Shown piece after piece: positions 3,056 through 28,171 of a DNA stretch of 64,000 bases. The position numbers and the translations under genes were made by a program. Every line of letters begins with the position of its first letter. Position 1 is the first letter of the stretch. The notes beneath the pieces are model-generated. The model did not search any database. It was not told the DNA's origin and worked only from the letters and a program-made list of their open reading frames with translations. The stretch comes from a phage, in the NCBI GenBank assembly GCA_018509705.1, contig GCA_018509705.1_3630.1; one strand, 5' to 3'.

Positions 3056-3817
3056 ATGCGACGACTGATTGTTATCTCCGGTGCTGGTTTGAGTGCTGAA
3101 TCTGGTATTCCCACTTTCCGATCTGGTAGCACTGCAATGTGGGAGAATTTCAGCATCGATGAGGTGTGCAACATCCACACCTTTGCCAAGAACTACTATA
3201 AGGTGCATGACTTTTACAATGCACGTCGTGTAGCTTTAGGCAGTGTTGAGCCTAACCTTGCACATCTTCGGATCGCTGAGTGGTATTCCCGCTGGTCTGG
3301 TCGTGTGATCAACCTTACCACCAATGTAGATGATTTGCTGGAGCGTGCTGGTGTAAAACATGAAGATATTTTACATGTCCACGGGTATTTGCCAGAAATA
3401 GTCTATGAGGACGATGAAGGAAGTGACGTCATTAAGGACATTGGATACTCTGAGGTAGACGCAGGAAAGTATACCTGGGTTAAGCCTAATGTGGTGTTCT
3501 TCGGAGAAGTAGCTCCGAAGTATACAGACATGTATGACCTGTTGACTTCTCTTACGAGCAATGATATGGTTATCCTTGTAGGGTGCTCCAACACAGTTAT
3601 CAATTTTAACTGGGAGCTATTCCCTGCCTGCAATAAGGGAACCAAACTACTGATCGTTAATAAATACGACTCACAGCATCTAGAGGAGAATGGCATTTCA
3701 CGTAGTGATATTTACCAGTATGAGGATCGCGGCATCCCAGTTTGGTTTAACGGTGCGGTTGATGCCTTCTCTGATAAAACATTCATTGAGACTGTAGAAA
3801 ACTTTATGGAACTTTAA
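3056..3817 (+). CDS. Sir2-family (sirtuin-like) protein lacking the zinc-ribbon cysteines
   Basis: GAGLSAESGIPTFRSG (GAGxSxxSGIPxFR), TTNVDDLLERAG (TQNID-like), HVHG catalytic His, VVFFGE; no CxxC pairs. Confidence 0.75.
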   Translation: MRRLIVISGAGLSAESGIPTFRSGSTAMWENFSIDEVCNIHTFAKNYYKVHDFYNARRVALGSVEPNLAHLRIAEWYSRWSGRVINLTTNVDDLLERAGVKHEDILHVHGYLPEIVYEDDEGSDVIKDIGYSEVDAGKYTWVKPNVVFFGEVAPKYTDMYDLLTSLTSNDMVILVGCSNTVINFNWELFPACNKGTKLLIVNKYDSQHLEENGISRSDIYQYEDRGIPVWFNGAVDAFSDKTFIETVENFMEL

Positions 3818-3830
3818 AAGGAGACCTTTA

Positions 3831-4544
3831 ATGCTGAATACTAAATTAATTGACAACCTGGAAAAACTATCCCAACCTGAAAACTACCTTTGGTCTGCCA
3901 ACTGGGTGGAAAACTGGAACCGTGTGGCAGCTAAAGTGAAAAAATCATACACACCATTCGAATTACAGCTTAGCTTCATTGAGGAAGAGTTCAATGAAGT
4001 TTTGGAAGAGCTGGAGAAAGGTGATGGTGGAGATCACCTGCTAAAAGAGGCCTGCGATCTTCACGTTGTCACAAGTTATGCAGCTTATCTTGTTAATGAC
4101 AATCACGAAAAGTGGTCAAACCTGTTTGATAATCCACGAGGTCTTAAGTTCAAGATCGGTGAGTTCTATGACACACTGATCGCTGCGAAAAACACATCCA
4201 AGCAAAGAGCGTCAGCTTACCGTTTAGCGGAGTTGTCAACAGCTTTGCTGTTCCAGCTTCGCGGCGATGTGTGCGGGATGATGCGTAAGGTTCTCAAATC
4301 GAATGACAGCAAGTTTGCACGGGTCAACCATCTACGGTATTCACACGGTGCCAGTGCAGATATGCCTGCTGAACAACTCATCGAGTTGGAGATTAAAGAT
4401 CTTGAGCGACGCTTTGATGGTCGATATGAAGGTTTTGTTGCTAAGGAAGAATTCTACAACGGTAATAAAGTTATCATATTCCTCGACAGTAAAGGTAAGA
4501 TTATGAAGCCTTCAAGCTTCAAGGATGTAACAGAATATATTTAA
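3831..4544 (+). CDS. MazG-like nucleotide pyrophosphohydrolase (putative)
   Basis: Acidic EEEFNEVLEELEK...EACDLHVV segment resembles the MazG EExxE...D motif. Confidence 0.45.
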   Translation: MLNTKLIDNLEKLSQPENYLWSANWVENWNRVAAKVKKSYTPFELQLSFIEEEFNEVLEELEKGDGGDHLLKEACDLHVVTSYAAYLVNDNHEKWSNLFDNPRGLKFKIGEFYDTLIAAKNTSKQRASAYRLAELSTALLFQLRGDVCGMMRKVLKSNDSKFARVNHLRYSHGASADMPAEQLIELEIKDLERRFDGRYEGFVAKEEFYNGNKVIIFLDSKGKIMKPSSFKDVTEYI

Positions 4545-4550
4545 TAATAT

Positions 4551-4578
4551 AGCCGGGGCGATCCCGGCTTTACTTGTT
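4551..4578 (+). terminator. Rho-independent terminator
   Basis: Hairpin AGCCGGGGCGATCCCGGCT followed by T-rich tract, just after the MazG-like gene. Confidence 0.55.
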
Positions 4579-4608
4579 TCGGAAAGTATGCAAGTGAGGT
4601 AGAAAGTT

Positions 4609-7050: not shown

Positions 7051-7723
7051 CGGGATTGACTGGTGGAGTGTCTTTAGATACGATACAGGCACTGGAAGGT
7101 TGTTTTGGAAGTCCCCACCAAAAAACAAACCTCAACTAATGGGAAAGGAGGCTGGATGTACTAACAACGGGTACAGGGATATAGTCTATCGTGGCGTGCA
7201 TTACTACAGGCATAGATTGGTGTGGGAGATGCATTATGGACCAATCCCAGAAGGGTACGAAGTTGATCACATAAAGCCACTTTTCTATTCCGACGGTGTT
7301 GCGGATGATAGGGTAGAAAACCTACAACTGTTAACACCAGAAGAAAATGCAAAAAAGGCGGCAGATGACGGATGCCTGGCACGCAAGATACCTAAATCCA
7401 ATACTGGACATTTGGGTGTATATTTTCATGCTAGATCTGGAAGGTATGCTGCTTTTGGTAAGGTAGGTCATTACTATAAGAAAGACCTAGGAGAATACGA
7501 TACCTTAGAAGAGGCCATTGCTGCTCAAAAGTCTTTTGAAAGTGGCACGTTTGTCAGGGAATATCGTGGACAGCCTTTAGGGAGGGATAAATCTAGAGGT
7601 GTCAGATTTGAAGCAGATAGGGGCAAATGGAAAGTAACTTTCAGAGGAAAAACGCTAGGCAGGTTTGACACCAAAGAGTCTGCTGAAGCGTGTTACGCAA
7701 AGGCTCTTACTGAAAGCTTGTAA
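7043..7723 (+). CDS. HNH homing endonuclease with AP2-like DNA-binding domain
   Basis: HRLVWEMHYGPIPEGYEVDHIKP...NLQLLTPEEN (HNH) plus TGHLGVYFHARSGRYAAFG (AP2-like); start at in-frame ATG 7043. Confidence 0.7.
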   Translation: MSNGIDWWSVFRYDTGTGRLFWKSPPKNKPQLMGKEAGCTNNGYRDIVYRGVHYYRHRLVWEMHYGPIPEGYEVDHIKPLFYSDGVADDRVENLQLLTPEENAKKAADDGCLARKIPKSNTGHLGVYFHARSGRYAAFGKVGHYYKKDLGEYDTLEEAIAAQKSFESGTFVREYRGQPLGRDKSRGVRFEADRGKWKVTFRGKTLGRFDTKESAEACYAKALTESL

Positions 7724-7791
7724 CAGTATCATTGACATAACCACACGGACGTGGTATTGTCACCTCATAAAATGTTTGAGAGGGTTTAACC

Positions 7792-7998
7792 ATGAAAGAT
7801 TTTCTGTTGGCAATTTTGTTCATGGCGGCATGTCTGGCCTGTGGTGTAGTGTTTGCAGGTGAAACAGCGTATCTTGTCGATGTATATCGGGACAATGGTA
7901 AACGTATTTGCCTTTATGAGACAAGCCAAGGTGAGCTCTACGAACTTGTGAAACAAGGAGAGGCAGGTTCCTGCCCTCGTACCCATTTCTTTGAATGA
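7792..7998 (+). CDS. Putative small lipoprotein
   Basis: N-terminal hydrophobic signal with lipobox-like FMAAC/LAC motif; 68 aa. Confidence 0.4.
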   Translation: MKDFLLAILFMAACLACGVVFAGETAYLVDVYRDNGKRICLYETSQGELYELVKQGEAGSCPRTHFFE

Positions 7999-8007
7999 GG
8001 AGGATAC

Positions 8008-8472
8008 GTGGAAGACGGACGTTTAATGAAGTCTGAACGCAGGCTTATTGTGCAACTGATCCCAGAAACAGCTTGGTATAATAACCTCCGAAACGCTGTA
8101 AAGAAGAGTGAGTGGGATAAGATCCGCAAGAAGTGCTATAGAGAAGCCAACTACACCTGTGAGGTGTGCGGCGGTAAAGGCAGCAAACACCCAGTGGAGT
8201 GTCATGAACTTTACACTTTCGAAGAGGGAGTGATCCGGCTTGTCGGACTGATAGCGTTGTGCCCAGATTGTCACACATCGGTGCATCCTGGGTTAGCAAA
8301 TATTCGTGGAAAGTATGCTCAGGCAGTTAATCAGTTGGCTAAGGTGAATAAGATCACCAGAGGTATGGCAGAGGCGTATTACCGAGACTGCTTTGCAGAG
8401 TGGCGCGAGCTTAGTAAAGTTCCAGAATGGAAGACTGACTTTTCGTGGATAGAGGATTACCTTGATGGCTAA
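8008..8472 (+). CDS. HNH endonuclease (zinc-binding)
   Basis: CEVCG...ECHE...CPDCH cysteine/histidine arrangement; GAGGAGGA RBS upstream. Confidence 0.65.
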   Translation: MEDGRLMKSERRLIVQLIPETAWYNNLRNAVKKSEWDKIRKKCYREANYTCEVCGGKGSKHPVECHELYTFEEGVIRLVGLIALCPDCHTSVHPGLANIRGKYAQAVNQLAKVNKITRGMAEAYYRDCFAEWRELSKVPEWKTDFSWIEDYLDG

Positions 8473-8755
8473 GAGATCTGTAAAAGAGAAATTCGATAAG
8501 ACAGCTTTTGTATTCGATACACCTCTGGACGATATCATCAGAGGTATGCAAGCCTTGTATCGGAAGGCTGAATCTGAGCAGTTGTCTGAATCAGAACTTT
8601 ACTGGCTTGGTTGGTGGGAGTTAAACCTGCCTAGAGCTGAAAGTTCTTGTCTGAGAACTGTTAAAACGTGCGCCCAAGAAAACGCTGCACTTGGAATCTA
8701 CCACAAAAGGAAAAGATCAACAAAAAGCTCTCCAAGAAAGACTAAAAAGTCTTGA
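8462..8755 (+). CDS. Hypothetical protein
   Basis: 97-aa ORF; no motif recognised. Confidence 0.35.
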   Translation: MMAKRSVKEKFDKTAFVFDTPLDDIIRGMQALYRKAESEQLSESELYWLGWWELNLPRAESSCLRTVKTCAQENAALGIYHKRKRSTKSSPRKTKKS

Positions 8756-21060: not shown

Positions 21061-21339
21061 ATGAGCTGTGAAAAATCTTTTTTCTTTATTATTTACGGTA
21101 AAGATAACTGCCCACATTGTGTCAGAGCAAAAGAATTTGCAATCAGCAAAGGTCTGCCTTTTGTATATAAGACACTTGGCGAGGGATACACAAAAGAAGA
21201 GCTTATTGAGAAGTGTAGCCCAATCGTGCCCAGAACGTTGCCGCAGATCTTCTTAGAAAGCAATCTTGAAAGTGTCCATATAGGCGGTGCCGACGATTTC
21301 ATCTCTTTTGTTAAGAATGGTTTTGGAGAGAAAAAGTGA
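21061..21339 (+). CDS. Glutaredoxin/NrdH-like redoxin
   Basis: CPHC active site in YGKDNCPHCVRAKEF; 92 aa. Confidence 0.7.
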   Translation: MSCEKSFFFIIYGKDNCPHCVRAKEFAISKGLPFVYKTLGEGYTKEELIEKCSPIVPRTLPQIFLESNLESVHIGGADDFISFVKNGFGEKK

Positions 21340-22199
21340 AAGTTGTAAAACGGGACGGTAGAGAAGAGTTCTATAACGGAATTAAGGTGATCAAGGCGGC
21401 AGAGTCCGCCTTACTTGAGTCTGGACATACTGAAGAAGAAGCTTACCGGATCGCCTGCGCGGTTAATGAAGTTGTTGCTAACAATCTACCAACCGACCAG
21501 TGCACGATCTCTGTAAAAAATATCCATATCCTTGTTGAAGACGCTCTTATGGATATGGGTTTAAAATGTGCAGCCAGAGAATACATCCAGTATAGGCAGA
21601 CAAGAGATAATAACAGAGAGGCAGGTGGAAAACTGCTTGCAGATATTAGTGGCTTCTTGGATCGCACTTGTGATGAATTTACAAAAGAAAACGCAAATAA
21701 GCCTACCAATCATGTACACACTCATCGTGACCTGCTTGCAGGCATTCTTAGCAAACACCTTGCATCAACACAGATCCTGCCAGACCGTGTCTCTGAAGAG
21801 CACAATAAAGGCTTCATCCATGTGCATGATCTTGACTACTTGATCAGTCCGTTAACAAACTGTTGTTTGGTAAATTATCCAGATATGCTGGAAAACGGAT
21901 TCAACATTGGTAACGCTCATGTCAGTAAGCCGAAGTCAATAGGGGTTGCAACAACAATCCTTAGCCAAATCTCTAGTGCGGTAGCTAGTGCTCAATATGG
22001 TGGTCAGACTATGAGCCATATTGATCATTATCTGGCACAGTATGCTGAAGCAACCTATGAGAAGAACCTTAAATTTTGCCAGGAACATTGGTTGCCAGAT
22101 GCTGAGACTGTTGCAATGCAAATGACAGATAAAGACGTATTTGACAGCATGCAGACTTTGCTCTATCAAATCAATACGTTAACTTCTGTCAACGGTTAA
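21336..22199 (+). CDS. nrdD: Anaerobic ribonucleoside-triphosphate reductase, exon 1 (3' boundary approximate)
   Basis: N-terminal ATP-cone MKVVKRDGREEFYNG; frame ends in stop followed by structured non-coding RNA-like sequence. Confidence 0.75.
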   Translation: MKVVKRDGREEFYNGIKVIKAAESALLESGHTEEEAYRIACAVNEVVANNLPTDQCTISVKNIHILVEDALMDMGLKCAAREYIQYRQTRDNNREAGGKLLADISGFLDRTCDEFTKENANKPTNHVHTHRDLLAGILSKHLASTQILPDRVSEEHNKGFIHVHDLDYLISPLTNCCLVNYPDMLENGFNIGNAHVSKPKSIGVATTILSQISSAVASAQYGGQTMSHIDHYLAQYAEATYEKNLKFCQEHWLPDAETVAMQMTDKDVFDSMQTLLYQINTLTSVNG

Positions 22200-22507
22200 C
22201 AAACTGGCCGTTTTAAAACTCTGCTAACCTCAGTATGAGGGGTCAGCTGATCGCTGGCTAACGGGGAACGCTAAGGCGAAAGCTATGCCAATCCCGTGAC
22301 TAGCTTCACAAGGAGTGAGGCGGTTGTAACGACTAACCTTTTGGTGTAGGGATTATGGAAGATTCCGAAACGCAGAGGTCTGATTAAGAATCACACGGTG
22401 TGATTTCAGGCAAGAGATAGTCTGGCCTTGTGGAAACATAAGGGTGGGGACCGCAAACCCCTTTTATCACATTAAGTTTAGGTCTGGACACCTCAGTATT
22501 TGGTAGA
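22200..22507 (+). ncRNA. Putative group I intron 1 in nrdD (boundaries approximate)
   Basis: About 300 nt without ORF between nrdD fragments; AAGAGATAGTC at 22412-22422 matches the group I S element consensus as recalled; GTTGTAACGACTAA resembles the R element. Confidence 0.55.
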
Positions 22508-22762
22508 ATGATTACCAAAAACTACTTGAAAGTCCACAAAATGGGTCTTGGTGAAGAACGTATCACACCTGTGTTCCCTAAAGTGCTGTTCTTCCTAGAA
22601 GAGGGTGTCAACATGAACCCTGGAGATCCTAACTATGATTTGAAACGATTAGCTTTGGAATGCTCTGCAGAGCGGATTTATCCTGACTTTGTTTCTGTTC
22701 CACTAAATCGTAAAGTGACAGGATCGACAGATGGCAAAGTAACGAGCATGGGTAAACTATAA
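22508..22762 (+). CDS. nrdD: Anaerobic ribonucleotide reductase, exon 2 (boundaries approximate)
   Basis: 84-aa ORF in a different frame between two intron-like regions; assigned by position only, not by NrdD motif. Confidence 0.5.
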   Translation: MITKNYLKVHKMGLGEERITPVFPKVLFFLEEGVNMNPGDPNYDLKRLALECSAERIYPDFVSVPLNRKVTGSTDGKVTSMGKL

Positions 22763-23500
22763 CTGCTCATGTAAAATCTATCTAAACGGGGAAACTCCAG
22801 AACGGACAATCCCGTGCTAAACGTAACAGAACTCCTGACCAAGAGGAGTCCTGAAATGAGAAAACAAATTCGTGATTTTGAAGGTTATGAAATTGACGAG
22901 ATGGGCAATGTTTATTGCACCCGCTACGAAAATGAAAGAATTATTCATTCGTGGGAAGAGATAAACACAGGTTACCGTCTTGTTAGGATACGCAAGAACA
23001 AAAAGACTGTTTGCCTAAGGGTTCACAGACTTGTTGCTGAATCGTTCTTACCAAATCCAGACAATTTACCCTATGTTAAGCACAAAGGGGACAACAGGAA
23101 AGATAACAGTGTATACAACCTTGAGTGGGGAGCTTGCCCAGACAATACGCAAGAAGGATACAACAACAACTGTTATGCTTTTTACACAAAATGCCACGGT
23201 GTGAAAGCCACCAACAAATTAACTGGTGAGGTTTTCCACTTTAAAAGTCTGAGATGTTGTGCTGATGTTTTAGGAGTGGATAGAAAAAGAATATCTGCTA
23301 TCCTGAAACGTGGTGCGCCTAATAACTATGATTACGAGTTCTGTTACGAAATGCCTAACGACTAACCGTGATGAATGTAGCGGTGTAGGGTGTAAGCCGA
23401 TGACACTCGAAATGGTAGACACACTAAGTGTGAAGATATAGTCTGATCTGCATGGGAACATGCAGCAGCACGTAAAGGTGCGGGGGTGGACTTGCGAACC
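22763..23500 (+). mobile_element. Putative group I intron 2 in nrdD carrying a homing endonuclease ORF (boundaries approximate)
   Basis: AAGATATAGTC at 23433-23443 is an exact match to the S element consensus as recalled; HNH ORF embedded. Confidence 0.6.
22856..23365 (+). CDS. HNH homing endonuclease (intron-encoded)
   Basis: VHRLVAESF...VKHKGDNRKDNSVYNLEW (HNH_3-like) plus N-terminal EGYEIDEMGNVY motif; ATG at 22856 with AGGAG RBS. Confidence 0.7.
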   Translation: MRKQIRDFEGYEIDEMGNVYCTRYENERIIHSWEEINTGYRLVRIRKNKKTVCLRVHRLVAESFLPNPDNLPYVKHKGDNRKDNSVYNLEWGACPDNTQEGYNNNCYAFYTKCHGVKATNKLTGEVFHFKSLRCCADVLGVDRKRISAILKRGAPNNYDYEFCYEMPND

Positions 23501-24478
23501 ACCCTGAACATAATGTGTAGAAGTTTCTTATCGAAATATAGCGACCCTGTAACAGGCGAGGAGAAATACCTTGGCAGATTTAACTTAGGCGTTGTTAGCC
23601 TTAACCTGCCAATGATTGCGGCAAAAGCTAAAACGGAAGGTGTTGATTTCTTTGCAGTTCTTGACGAATACCTGGATCTTGCATACGAGGCTCACCTTGT
23701 AAGGGTTAACCGTCTAAAAGGAACAAAGGCAGGGCAGAACCCTATCATGTGGTGTGAAGGCGCTCTTGCTCGCCTGGATCCTGAAGAGAGTATTGATAAA
23801 CTCTTCTATGACGGGTACGCTTCCATCAGTATTGGGTATATTGGTGTGTATGAAACCTGTCAGATTTTGGGCAGGGAGGGTGACAAGGCTTTAGCTCTTG
23901 GAATACTACAGCACATGAGAGATGCTTGTGAGCGATACAAGAAGGAAAGTAGACTAGCGTTTAGCTTGTACGGCACTCCTTCTGAGAGTCTATGCTATAA
24001 AGCTGCAACCTGTCTGGATCGTGAATATCCTGAAGTGTTGAAGCACGAGCATGAATATCTCACCAACAGTTTCCATCAGCCAGTATGGATCAATAGCTCT
24101 CCTTTTGATAAGTGGGAGTATGAAGAAGGTTTTGCTATGATATCCTCTGGTGGCAACATCGGATACGTAGAGACACCAAATCTGAAAAACAACTTAGATG
24201 CTTTGGAAGCTCTTGTTGATTTCGGATATAAACACATTATGTATTTTGGTATCAACCAGCCTGTGGATAAATGTCTTAAGTGTGGTTTCTCTGGTGAGTT
24301 CAGTGCAACAGCTAAAGGGTTCTGCTGCCCTGCGTGCGGATGCCACGATGAACAATATATCTCAGTGATCCGAAGAGTGTCTGGATACCTTTCCAGTCCT
24401 AACTCCCGTCCTTACAATAAAGGTAAGCAAGCGGAAGTTATAGAACGGGTTAAGCACTACGGAAGTTGTGGTTGCTGA
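23486..24478 (+). CDS. nrdD: Anaerobic ribonucleotide reductase, exon 3 (5' boundary approximate)
   Basis: Conserved CRSFL and GRFNLGVVSLNLP region, C-terminal zinc site CLKCG...CPACG and glycyl radical motif RRVSGYL. Confidence 0.85.
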   Translation: MDLRTTLNIMCRSFLSKYSDPVTGEEKYLGRFNLGVVSLNLPMIAAKAKTEGVDFFAVLDEYLDLAYEAHLVRVNRLKGTKAGQNPIMWCEGALARLDPEESIDKLFYDGYASISIGYIGVYETCQILGREGDKALALGILQHMRDACERYKKESRLAFSLYGTPSESLCYKAATCLDREYPEVLKHEHEYLTNSFHQPVWINSSPFDKWEYEEGFAMISSGGNIGYVETPNLKNNLDALEALVDFGYKHIMYFGINQPVDKCLKCGFSGEFSATAKGFCCPACGCHDEQYISVIRRVSGYLSSPNSRPYNKGKQAEVIERVKHYGSCGC

Positions 24479-24544
24479 TACTTGACAAAAGCCACAAGGA
24501 TGTGGCACCCTTAGTTCAAAGACGAGAACTAAGAGGATTCAGCA

Positions 24545-25705
24545 GTGAGAAAACTTACAACCGAAGATTTTATAGAGGGGGCGAAAGCAGTTCATGGTGA
24601 TAAATATGATTATTCCAAAGTCAAATATGTGGGTGCACACACCAAGATTGTAATTATATGCCCTGAGCATGGAGAATTTAAGAAAACTCTTGGAGATCAC
24701 CTCCGTAAAAAACAGGGTTGCCCAAAATGTCAGATTGAAGCAGAAAGAGCGGCTTCTGCTGAAAAATTTAAAGCGGAGGCCGAGGCTAAGTATAATTATA
24801 AATATGATTACTCTAAGGTAGAGTATGTAAATGCTAAAACTAAAGTTGTGATTGTTTGTCCTGTTCACGGCGAGTTTGAGCAAAAGCCTGATAACCATCT
24901 CCGCGAGGGGGGTTGCCGTAAGTGTGGAGGAACTGAGAGAAAGACTACTGAAGAGTGGATCGCTGAGGCAAAAGCGCTTCATGGCGATAAGTATGATTAC
25001 TCTCTTGTAAATTATAAAACCGGTAATGATAAAGTGGAGATAATCTGTAATACATGTGGTGCTCACTTCCCACAAAGACCTCATGACCATGCACCAAGTG
25101 GAAAAGGTTGCCCCGAGTGCGGGAAGAAGAAGGTGGCCGAGGTTAGTAGGAAGACGCAGAGAAAGAAAGCATCTGAGGTAGCTAAAAGGTTTGAGGCAAG
25201 AGCCAGAGCTATCCATAAAGATAAATACGATTATTCCAGGGTGGAATATGTTAATAGGGAGACAGAGGTCACTATCATCTGTCCGATTCACGGGGAGTTC
25301 ACACAAAAACCGTTTGTCCACATCAACCAAAAAGCTGGCTGTCAAAAATGTGCTAAAGTCGGCTTCTTATCTCATGAACATGGTAGCCTTTATATCATGG
25401 TTGACGATCTGGAAGTACCAACTATGATGAAAATTGGTGTGAGTGTCCGGGTAGATGAACGAAGAAAAGATGTGTTAAAAAGAGCTAAAAAAGCTGGTGC
25501 TAGATTCTCTGATCTACATGTTATAAAAACTTGGGAAGGAACAACAGACGACATGCAAACTTTAGAAAAAGCTATGCACCAAGCCTTGAGCCAATACAAA
25601 ATCAACTTCACAGAGAAGTTTGATGGCTGTCGAGAGTTCTTCTACTACAGACCGGAGGTGTTCAGCATAGTGGAAGCAGCGTATAAAGAGATCTGCGGTA
25701 AATGA
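24545..25705 (+). CDS. T5orf172/GIY-YIG-like domain protein with four N-terminal tandem Cys/His repeat modules
   Basis: Four repeats of about 60 aa (KYDYSKV.YV...TK..I.CP.HGEF.QKP..H...GC.KC); C-terminal KIGVS...E..H..L...REFF pattern. Confidence 0.55.
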   Translation: MRKLTTEDFIEGAKAVHGDKYDYSKVKYVGAHTKIVIICPEHGEFKKTLGDHLRKKQGCPKCQIEAERAASAEKFKAEAEAKYNYKYDYSKVEYVNAKTKVVIVCPVHGEFEQKPDNHLREGGCRKCGGTERKTTEEWIAEAKALHGDKYDYSLVNYKTGNDKVEIICNTCGAHFPQRPHDHAPSGKGCPECGKKKVAEVSRKTQRKKASEVAKRFEARARAIHKDKYDYSRVEYVNRETEVTIICPIHGEFTQKPFVHINQKAGCQKCAKVGFLSHEHGSLYIMVDDLEVPTMMKIGVSVRVDERRKDVLKRAKKAGARFSDLHVIKTWEGTTDDMQTLEKAMHQALSQYKINFTEKFDGCREFFYYRPEVFSIVEAAYKEICGK

Positions 25706-25757
25706 TCGTAGAAAGATACACACATCTTAAACATGCTATAAACTAAGGAGGTACAGT

Positions 25758-25874
25758 ATGTCTAAAGGTATTTCTAAAATTTGCAAGTGTGGTTGTCGTT
25801 GCAATCTTCGTTGGTGCAAGGCACTAGATGATTTTATTTGGCATTGCCCTAAATGTGATACGGAGTATCTATGA
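25758..25874 (+). CDS. Small Cys-rich zinc-ribbon-like peptide (38 aa)
   Basis: Hand-translated MSKGISKICKCGCRCNLRWCKALDDFIWHCPKCDTEYL; strong RBS AAGGAGG; stop overlaps nrdG start. Confidence 0.5.
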   Translation: MSKGISKICKCGCRCNLRWCKALDDFIWHCPKCDTEYL

Positions 25875-26344
25875 ACATTGTCGGATACACAGAAATATCT
25901 TACACAGAAGGGCCAGGTATTAGAACTGCCTTGTGGGTATCTGGGTGCCCACACGCTTGCCCTGGTTGCTTTAATCAGGCATTTTGGTCAAAAGATAAGG
26001 GGAGGGAGTTCACTGAAGAAGATTTGCAAAAAATCTTGTCAGATTTAGATAACCCGTCTGTGTGCGGTATCTCTCTGCTGGGTGGAGAACCCTTAGCATA
26101 CTATAATGAGCCAGATATTATTAGCCTGATGGAGAAAATTAAGGAAAAATTTGGTGACAAGAAAACTATTCTTGTATATACTGGGTTCACATTTAACCAT
26201 ATCTCTAGTGATGTTCTTAAACTGGCTGATATCATCATTGACGGTAAGTATGTAAAAGATTTACCAACCAAGAAACCGTTCCGAGGCAGTGATAATCAAA
26301 GAATGTTTAAAAAAGTATCAGGCGGTTGGGTTCAGGTAGACTAG
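25871..26344 (+). CDS. nrdG: Anaerobic ribonucleotide reductase activating protein (radical SAM)
   Basis: CPHACPGC radical-SAM cysteine motif; 157 aa. Confidence 0.85.
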   Translation: MNIVGYTEISYTEGPGIRTALWVSGCPHACPGCFNQAFWSKDKGREFTEEDLQKILSDLDNPSVCGISLLGGEPLAYYNEPDIISLMEKIKEKFGDKKTILVYTGFTFNHISSDVLKLADIIIDGKYVKDLPTKKPFRGSDNQRMFKKVSGGWVQVD

Positions 26345-26347
26345 TTG

Positions 26348-26377
26348 TTGACAAAGCTTTGTTTAGATAGGTATAAT
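26348..26377 (+). promoter_or_regulatory. Sigma70-type promoter (TTGACA-18-TATAAT)
   Basis: Consensus hexamers read directly. Confidence 0.65.
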
Positions 26378-26408
26378 TATCGTAAAATGAAAGCAGAGGA
26401 GGTGCCAA

Positions 26409-27696: not shown

Positions 27697-27740
27697 TACA
27701 GAAGGGTGGTTATTCCACCCTTAAATGTCTAAAACAGTTG

Positions 27741-27769
27741 TTGACAAACAGGTGAGCTTTAGATACTAT
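27741..27769 (+). promoter_or_regulatory. Sigma70-type promoter (TTGACA-17-TACTAT)
   Basis: Read directly; lies inside the track ORF, implying a later start codon. Confidence 0.45.
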
Positions 27770-27799
27770 TATTGGACAAAACAAGGAGAAGGGCACAGT

Positions 27800-28111
27800 A
27801 TGGCTACAATACAAGAGAGACTGAATAAAATATACTGCCTGTTTGTCTATAACGGTGAGACAATTTTGGCAAATAAAGGATCCAAGAATGTGTGGACCAA
27901 GGATAGTGGTGGTAATATAATCAACTTAGCGTTGCTACGTGAGCGCCGACACAGATTCTTTACCGAGTCTCGGATTATTGAAAGCAGCACCTGCTACAGA
28001 ACAGGCGATAAAGTGATTGTTGACAATGATACGTGGTATGTGGTAGACTGGCAATCATTGAGCTGTGATGCTTCTGACAATCGTAAGTATTCCATAGTGA
28101 TTGCTAAATAA
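27800..28111 (+). CDS. Hypothetical protein
   Basis: Start reset to ATG 27800 with AAGGAGAAGGG RBS. Confidence 0.45.
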   Translation: MATIQERLNKIYCLFVYNGETILANKGSKNVWTKDSGGNIINLALLRERRHRFFTESRIIESSTCYRTGDKVIVDNDTWYVVDWQSLSCDASDNRKYSIVIAK

Positions 28112-28171
28112 AGGTAAATGTGAATCAGGTTTAAATAAACAGCTTTCAACTTCCAATATTAAGGATTTCTC

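Follow-up and report, generated by a model that had tools for sequence, protein, structure and literature searches.

Introduction

Among the homing endonuclease genes (HEGs) with a T5orf172 domain, 200 of 229 carry zinc fingers of the CapR, DUF723 or DUF4379 type (Barth et al. 2023, PMC10448857). Such fingers frequently occur several times in one protein ("class V repeat proteins", compared to beads on a string), their modules are shuffled, the genes cluster round essential genes as HEG islands, and of phage HEGs in general it was stated that "nuclease genes occupy boundaries of genetic exchange" (PMC10448857). According to the same authors, homing by T5orf172 HEGs is without experimental verification (PMC10448857). 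The names Vequintavirus and rV5 have no occurrence in that paper, and the nrdD-nrdG site and the allele series described below are absent from it. For a related T5orf172 protein, ICP1 Odn (Gp88), cleavage of double-stranded DNA was shown experimentally (PMC8263062), and the cysteines of the CapR finger were found to be needed for DNA binding by an electrophoretic mobility shift assay (EMSA) of Cys-to-Ser mutants (PMC8096241).

Here, a 64,000-nucleotide stretch of phage DNA (contig GCA_018509705.1_3630.1, hereafter the window) was analysed. ORF 24545..25705, located in the nrdD-nrdG spacer, is probably a free-standing HEG of the T5orf172 branch of the GIY-YIG superfamily, and homing is predicted for it. 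As in the HEGs of PMC10448857, an N-terminal zinc-finger array is joined to a C-terminal T5orf172 domain, the gene lies beside essential nucleotide-metabolism genes, other HEGs and introns in the manner of an HEG island, alleles differ in the number and order of modules, and recombination breakpoints fall at or in the gene. It differs from those of ICP1 and the other phages in that paper by its occurrence in a Vequintavirus coliphage lineage, and by having four fingers that are all of the DUF723 type, with the CapR profile below its cut-off. The architecture noticed in the original prediction is real, but it is less novel than was implied there, as it had already been described in PMC10448857.

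The window protein shares with I-TevI and the Seg proteins of T4 a GIY-YIG-type catalytic domain tethered to a separate and extended region for DNA binding, of which a zinc finger is part, and with Seg also the free-standing position between phage genes, including nrd genes, and the co-conversion of flanking markers. In I-TevI and Seg, however, the catalytic domain is N-terminal rather than C-terminal, the motif is GIY...YIG rather than the T5orf172 variant SLY...KIG, and DNA is bound by a zinc finger, a minor-groove helix and a helix-turn-helix instead of the four tandem fingers predicted here. In ICP1 Odn, too, the T5orf172 nuclease domain is joined to a DNA-binding domain that can be swapped, but this second domain is RepA_N and Odn targets a satellite replication origin as an anti-parasite weapon, whereas the window protein has a zinc-finger array and the genomic pattern of a homing element. 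The CapR protein of PLE contains a related Cys-based zinc-finger DNA-binding module; it lacks a nuclease domain and functions as a repressor, while the nuclease domain of the window protein is apparently intact. The locus is a well-resolved coliphage case of the T5orf172/zinc-finger-array class of HEGs described in 2021-2023, and offers an exact junction, the sequence of the empty site, a series of alleles whose fingers are shuffled, and a recombination breakpoint that has been mapped.

Phage, locus and flanking genes

The host phage of the window is a Vequintavirus (rV5-like myovirus of E. coli). Positions 24000-26400 matched SophiaRose at 98.0% and O157 typing phage 14 at 97.1% identity over 95% of the length, and about 120 further Vequintavirus records matched parts of the same region. 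The genes of the locus are as follows.

21336..24478, + strand: nrdD, the left-hand host gene (exons 21336-22195, 22453-~22753 and ~23524-24478; Pfam NRDD)
22814-23365: HNH ORF inside the second nrdD intron (Pfam HNH_3, NUMOD-like)
24545..25705, + strand: homing-endonuclease-type ORF, 386 aa, GTG start
25758..25874, + strand: Cys-rich peptide ORF, 38 aa, with a strong ribosome-binding site (RBS; AAGGAGGT) and an ATGA overlap with the nrdG start at 25871 (phrog_20137)
25871..26344, + strand: nrdG, activase of the anaerobic ribonucleotide reductase and right-hand host gene (Pfam Fer4_12, E 1.1e-42; Radical_SAM)

The exon limits of nrdD were obtained by blastn against the intron-less nrdD of Murica. 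Two group I introns interrupt the gene (Rfam Intron_gpI, E 3e-4 and 4e-6, both below the gathering score), in agreement with the earlier description of nrdD as intron-containing. The nrdD-nrdG spacer measures 1392 bp in the window versus 176 bp in phages with an empty site.

Zinc-finger repeats

The start codon of ORF 24545..25705 is preceded at a distance of 7 nt by the RBS AAGAGGA (24531-24537), and the product is 96.9% identical to SophiaRose QXN68891, annotated as "putative GIY-YIG nuclease family protein". Pfam profiles run against the whole ORF gave DUF723 with 53.1 bits (cut-off 20.9; three stretches) and DUF4379 with 44.9 bits (cut-off 24.5). The CapR profile PF21817 scored 15.5 bits against a cut-off of 24.2, so that the protein falls outside the CapR subfamily itself. 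DUF4379 is described in Pfam as a probable treble clef zinc finger; its match was strongest at aa 161-194, in the third of four repeats.

24545..24742, + strand: zinc-finger repeat 1, DUF723 type (aa 1-66; CPEHG ... H52 ... C59-x2-C62)
24743..24937, + strand: zinc-finger repeat 2, DUF723 type (aa 67-131; CPVHG ... C124-x2-C127)
24938..25144, + strand: zinc-finger repeat 3, four-Cys variant (aa 132-200; C168-NT-C171 ... C189-x2-C192)
25178..25366, + strand: zinc-finger repeat 4 (aa 212-274; CPIHG ... C266-x2-C269)

The four consecutive repeats of about 60 aa that had been proposed were borne out by their alignment scores as well as by DUF723 and DUF4379: pairwise protein identity was 43-58%, and local BLOSUM62 scores between repeats were 116-176 versus 22-25 for shuffled sequences (z = 17-36). 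The invariant core reads KYDYS..V.Y....I.C..(H/C)G.F....H....GC..C. Each repeat keeps the order C-x2-H/C ... H ... C-x2-C (C39/H42/H52/C59/C62 in repeat 1), repeat 3 carrying CNTCG where CPxHG is expected, and a long Lys/Arg-rich helix is predicted ahead of repeat 4 (about aa 190-224). The proposal that each repeat is a potential zinc-binding unit is likewise upheld as far as Pfam assignment and residues go, with the four putative metal ligands (C39/H42/C59/C62 and their equivalents) intact in all four repeats; these Cys and His positions also hardly vary among 33 diverse repeats taken from homologues in metagenomes. DNA identity between the four repeats of the ORF is just 55-60%, and they are therefore regarded as old modules rather than products of a recent tandem duplication.

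Repeat 1 alone was modelled by AlphaFold with a pLDDT of 92.6. In the model, a helix is followed by a beta-hairpin with the CPxHG knuckle in its turn, a short helix, and then a further helix with the C-x2-C pair at its N-terminus, a layout that would fit a treble-clef finger. A profile search of PDB sequences with the repeat alignment returned nothing significant, and the 64-kb window contained no paralogue of the ORF elsewhere.

C-terminal nuclease domain

The remainder of the protein forms one domain.

25367..25702, + strand: T5orf172/MUG113 domain of the GIY-YIG superfamily (aa 275-386; SLYIMVDD in beta 1, MKIGVS in beta 2, GCREFF)

The T5orf172/GIY-YIG-like domain, recognized earlier as a C-terminal fusion, was confirmed by Pfam at aa 282-371 (PF10544 T5orf172, 27.1 bits, cut-off 20; PF13455 MUG113, 29.3 bits, cut-off 22.3), by PHROGs with the whole protein (phrog_681 "endonuclease", E 3.7e-80), and by a fold comparison in which the domain is predicted to adopt the GIY-YIG alpha/beta fold. 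Six residues (K296, G298, R306, E341, H345 and E364) were invariant in 21 homologues. Of these, R306 and E364, the latter within GCREFF, are candidates for the catalytic Arg and Glu, being placed where the family motifs are expected. When the nuclease-domain alignment was compared by hhalign with an approximate sequence of I-TevI, the probability was 0.08, and equivalence of R27/E75 to R306/E364 was not supported.

A profile search of PDB sequences with the C-terminal alignment gave nothing significant, and NCBIfam had no match to the protein. PADLOC gave a weak match to PDC-S57 (E 6e-4) covering the generic nuclease domain only; with a hit so weak and generic, and none in NCBIfam, assignment to a known defence system is unsupported.

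Insertion site and junctions

The spacer was compared with the empty sites of Murica, rV5_ev146, FV3, FFH2 and PDX, and the left flank was aligned over 16 loci.

24479..24507, + strand: conserved left flank after the nrdD stop (TTGACA at 24482-24487; hairpin GCCACA-AGGA-TGTGGC at 24491-24506)
24508..25742 (right end approximate), + strand: inserted cassette of about 1235 bp, replacing about 20 nt (TATTATTGACACACAGTGAG)

Homology to the empty-site phages stops at 24507. This left junction is base-identical in seven alleles, with the shared flank ...TGA TAC TTGACA AAA GCCACAAGGATGTGGC A immediately before it, and the hairpin at 24491-24506 was independently picked up by a promoter and hairpin scan. 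After the junction, empty sites continue with TATTATTGACACACAGTGAG CTAGGAGG...ATG, the last triplet being the start of the peptide ORF, and occupied sites continue with the cassette, homology returning at the RBS of the peptide.

In empty sites CATATT comes next after the left flank and completes a promoter-like TTGACA-N18-CATATT ahead of the peptide-nrdG unit, for which it presumably acts as promoter. The nucleotides replaced by the cassette include the -10 part of this element; the -35 part and the hairpin are kept. No convincing promoter for ORF 24545..25705 itself was found in a promoter scan of the window. Since the cassette replaces about 20 nt of the spacer, the recognition sequence expected for a site-specific enzyme is destroyed in occupied genomes.

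Distribution and alleles in Vequintavirus

ORF 24545..25705 is not a core gene of the genus. A query was built from Murica that consisted of nrdD, the 176-bp spacer with its unannotated peptide ORF, and nrdG, and a contiguous empty site was found with it in 68 of 120 Vequintavirus records, a distribution opposite to the uniform conservation that the original prediction had named as counter-evidence. An insert of more than 1 kb splits the site in 27 of the 120, and DNA related to the nuclease domain lies directly upstream of the peptide gene in 25 Vequintavirus records. The allele of the window itself was present in only two other records, SophiaRose and typing phage 14. At least seven alleles occupy the junction, and the number, type and order of their fingers vary (723, DUF723 type; 4379, DUF4379 type):

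Window, SophiaRose and typing phage 14: 723-723-723(CNTCG)-723, 386 aa
Mangalyan: 723-723(CNTCG)-4379-723, 386 aa
JEP1: 723-4379-723, 311 aa
phiWec189: 723-723-723(CNTCG), 333 aa
WalterGehring (annotated "putative homing endonuclease"): 723-723(CNTCG)-4379, 330 aa
navn, I29 and A13b: 723-723-4379, 310 aa
ECML-10: 723-4379-4379-4379, 375 aa

The four-Cys module of the CNTCG type (repeat 3) is the best kept across alleles (65-69% identity), and the nuclease domains are 58-66% identical to one another. Outside the genus, the closest relatives of the nuclease domain are lambdoid phage and prophage proteins with a single finger (63%, as close as between alleles). These proteins, namely gp12 of the lambdoid coliphage mEp013, that of mEp021 and proteins of E. 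coli prophages, have nuclease domains with 60-69% protein and 70-73% DNA identity; they differ from the window protein in their length of about 178 aa, their one DUF4379-type finger and their location in the replication region of temperate phages.

In metagenomes, arrays of four to nine such fingers are common, so that four fingers are unremarkable. From their motifs, most of these arrays appear to be fused to a different, PD-(D/E)xK-like C-terminal domain.

The insertion and its distribution bear on a different role for the protein, namely that a nuclease or DNA-binding protein without homing is kept for excluding or degrading competing phages or satellites, or for repressing the nrdG promoter region. 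The same domain types have been co-opted in this way (ICP1 Odn against a satellite, PLE CapR as a repressor), and the cassette sits on the -10 region of the promoter-like element while sparing the -35 region and hairpin. Autorepression by I-TevI is a precedent for a repressor role of a homing nuclease. The PDC-S57 match would also agree with such a role, but it is restricted to the generic nuclease domain, most members of the genus are without the gene, and presence or absence at a fixed site, many interchangeable alleles and co-converted flanks (see below) are what homing predicts. A job other than homing is consequently considered quite improbable.

Signs of recent horizontal movement

Comparison with SophiaRose showed 2 mismatches in 1177 nt (99.8% identity) over the left spacer and gene body, versus 36 in 955 (96.1%) in nrdD exon 3, 93.4% identity in exon 2 and 14 mismatches in 474 (97.0%) in nrdG. 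The 3' end of the gene has another origin.

25656..25757, + strand: recombinant 3' end (last 14 codons and downstream spacer), of the JEP1/navn type and not of the SophiaRose type

Sliding identity was 100% to SophiaRose up to about 25655 and thereafter 93-100% to JEP1, which places the breakpoint inside the conserved coding motif EFFYYRPEVF. The window allele thus seems to have replaced a resident allele of the JEP1 type, one crossover falling within the gene. The window allele is found beside an nrdD with no intron in typing phage 14, one in SophiaRose and two in the window, and with alleles of the navn type the 3' end of nrdD has been replaced and a terminator and a promoter-like element of their own are present. 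On sequence grounds, the high identity of the insert relative to its flanks and the chimeric 3' end point to recent horizontal movement and to the replacement of one allele by another. Patterns of this kind agree with those described for phage HEGs (PMC10448857). Recombination alone, without action of the nuclease, could in principle yield such a mosaic.

A further explanation is that the gene is an inactive, decaying relic of an HEG that now spreads only passively via general recombination. Decay after fixation is predicted by the HEG life cycle, non-synonymous changes prevail among the few substitutions that separate the three near-identical alleles (2:0 and 4:1, non-synonymous to synonymous), and a truncated, frameshifted variant of 327 aa (P0002) occurs in metagenomes, so that some copies of the gene may be decaying. 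These substitution counts are, however, too small for significance, the ORF was full-length in 10 of the 10 alleles examined, every predicted zinc ligand is retained, as are both the invariant Arg and the invariant Glu, and 99.8% identity across diverged backbones implies recent transfer. For the window gene, decay to an inactive relic is accordingly rated as very improbable.

Proposed homing and target recognition

A mobile nuclease is strongly favoured because of the presence or absence at a fixed junction, the multiple alleles, and an insert more conserved than its flanks; with this evidence, the first of the two options left by the original prediction (another mobile nuclease, or a regulator) is supported. 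As a homing endonuclease, the protein would act through its four tandem DUF723-type fingers, which as "beads on a string" would jointly read a long asymmetric site in the DNA of phages without the gene. The most likely target would be the conserved spacer around ...GGATGTGGCA/TATTATTGACACACAGTGAG/CTAGGAGG..., which is destroyed by the insertion. The C-terminal GIY-YIG-type domain would cut near the finger-bound site, the break would be repaired in a mixed infection from the genome carrying the HEG, and repair would copy the cassette together with variable lengths of flank into the recipient. Zinc and DNA binding by the protein, its target site, its cutting activity and a biased inheritance of the gene are all inferred.

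It is conceivable, though unlikely, that each finger reads DNA independently and can be exchanged by recombination, and that modules correspond to subsites by a code that could be deciphered. In that case, the CNTCG-type module that is shared would recognize the subsite common to all alleles, and the alleles together would provide natural training data for a new programmable nuclease scaffold.

E. coli K-12 supports the growth of Vequintaviruses, and numerous isolates that carry or lack the gene can be obtained, the BASEL collection being one source; the nrdD-nrdG locus is for these reasons a convenient E. coli system in which to test homing by T5orf172 proteins and the specification of targets by finger arrays.

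Cys-rich peptide upstream of nrdG

The peptide encoded at 25758..25874 had been noted for its strong RBS, its overlap with nrdG and eight cysteines; the ORF, the RBS and the overlap stand, but the count is seven Cys and one His. Judging from the ATGA overlap, the peptide is translationally coupled to nrdG. Of 122 phage records that matched, 121 contain it, those with and those without the nuclease gene alike, and it is hence not part of the mobile element. That the nuclease instead serves the anaerobic ribonucleotide reductase as a core accessory protein, perhaps as a metal or redox partner alongside the Cys-rich peptide, is scarcely credible: nothing but the position between nrdD and nrdG and the Cys/His content speaks for it, a nuclease fold is predicted, homologues have unrelated neighbours, in lambdoid mEp013 for instance replication genes, and the role is effectively refuted by the absence of the gene in the 68 of 120 genus members that retain nrdD, peptide and nrdG.

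The podovirus ACG-C91 (SP6-like) has a 35-aa homologue of the peptide, 83% identical and coupled through ATGA to a DNA ligase gene. The idea that peptide and nuclease gene are functionally linked was rejected, given the genus-wide presence of the former and its coupling to DNA ligase in the podovirus. Among 1.84 billion representative proteins, only three close clusters of the peptide were found. Because the ACG-C91 homologue is coupled to DNA ligase, the "ribonucleotide reductase" label attached to the 38-aa peptide (phrog_20137, FFH2 ORF107) is to be read in annotation as positional only.

Insertions around nrdD and nrdG

Features of the nrdD-nrdG region and of the site near phoH were located in the window and at the corresponding loci of relatives, as follows.

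Window 22196-22452 and ~22760-23520: two group I introns in nrdD (Rfam Intron_gpI)
Window 22814-23365: HNH/NUMOD-like endonuclease ORF within the second intron
Window 24491-24506: perfect hairpin GCCACA-AGGA-TGTGGC, directly before the insertion junction
L005 (MaxTheCat) 2082-2454, L004 (WalterGehring) 3599-3980 and L016 (Mangalyan) 2510-2882: extra DNA from the peptide gene to nrdG
L001 (SophiaRose) 7765-8694 and L003 (navn) 7575-8504: further T5orf172 gene, 309 aa, three fingers

Both introns were matched by Intron_gpI under its gathering score (E 3e-4 and 4e-6), and the first was without an ORF. Both were present in navn, only the first in SophiaRose, and neither in Murica or O157 typing phage 14. 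The hairpin before the junction was kept in occupied and empty sites alike, and on the minus strand it resembles a terminator, with TTTTGT next to it on the 3′ side.

In navn, I29 and A13b (L003 ~4440-4600, L006 and L009, respectively), the C-terminus of NrdD was KHVGNVDWCPLSK (stop) instead of KHYGSCGC (stop), and this altered end adjoined a 310-aa HEG allele. Downstream of it lie a strong hairpin of terminator-like form and a TTGACT-N17-TATAGT element; therefore, the HEG cassette of these three phages seems to have carried a foreign nrdD 3′ end along. The extra DNA of MaxTheCat, WalterGehring and Mangalyan (about 390 bp, which include a pair of short ORFs, one of roughly 34 aa and one of roughly 78 aa) is one more variable insert of the spacer. 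The second T5orf172 gene of SophiaRose and navn was flanked by phoH on one side and by the small ORF that comes next on the other; this site was empty in the window (27697-28171), where the phoH-to-clpP distance of 475 nt was identical to that of Murica.

Nuclease domains and finger arrays in other phages and metagenomes

A single-finger T5orf172 protein of 178 aa was found in the lambdoid coliphages mEp013 (L017 2293-2829) and mEp021. Its nuclease-domain DNA was 70-73% identical to that of the window, which indicates an exchange of this domain between unrelated coliphage families. Metagenomic proteins with 4-9 DUF723 zinc fingers were very common (at least 8000 matches), and most of the homologues P0003-P0120 ended in a PD-(D/E)xK-like region (motif ...LDFYLP...IECQG.QHF...), not in T5orf172; the finger array is thus joined to at least two predicted nuclease types.

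Cys-rich peptide and host labels

Window 25758-25874: Cys-rich peptide, 38 aa
L018 (ACG-C91) 2501-2608: homologue of the peptide

The peptide was core in Vequintavirus, and its homologue in the SP6-like podovirus ACG-C91 (83% identity) was ATGA-coupled to a DNA ligase gene, not to nrdG. Only three close clusters were obtained in a search of 1.84 billion representative proteins, and the label 'ribonucleotide reductase' looks purely positional.

Eighteen MG0656xx records ('Campylobacter phage' A13b, D1, C5 and others), labelled as Campylobacter jejuni phages and classified as Vequintavirus, were 88-97% identical to coliphages at the nrdD-nrdG locus. Their Campylobacter host label is doubtful, and the one record examined, A13b, was marked UNVERIFIED.
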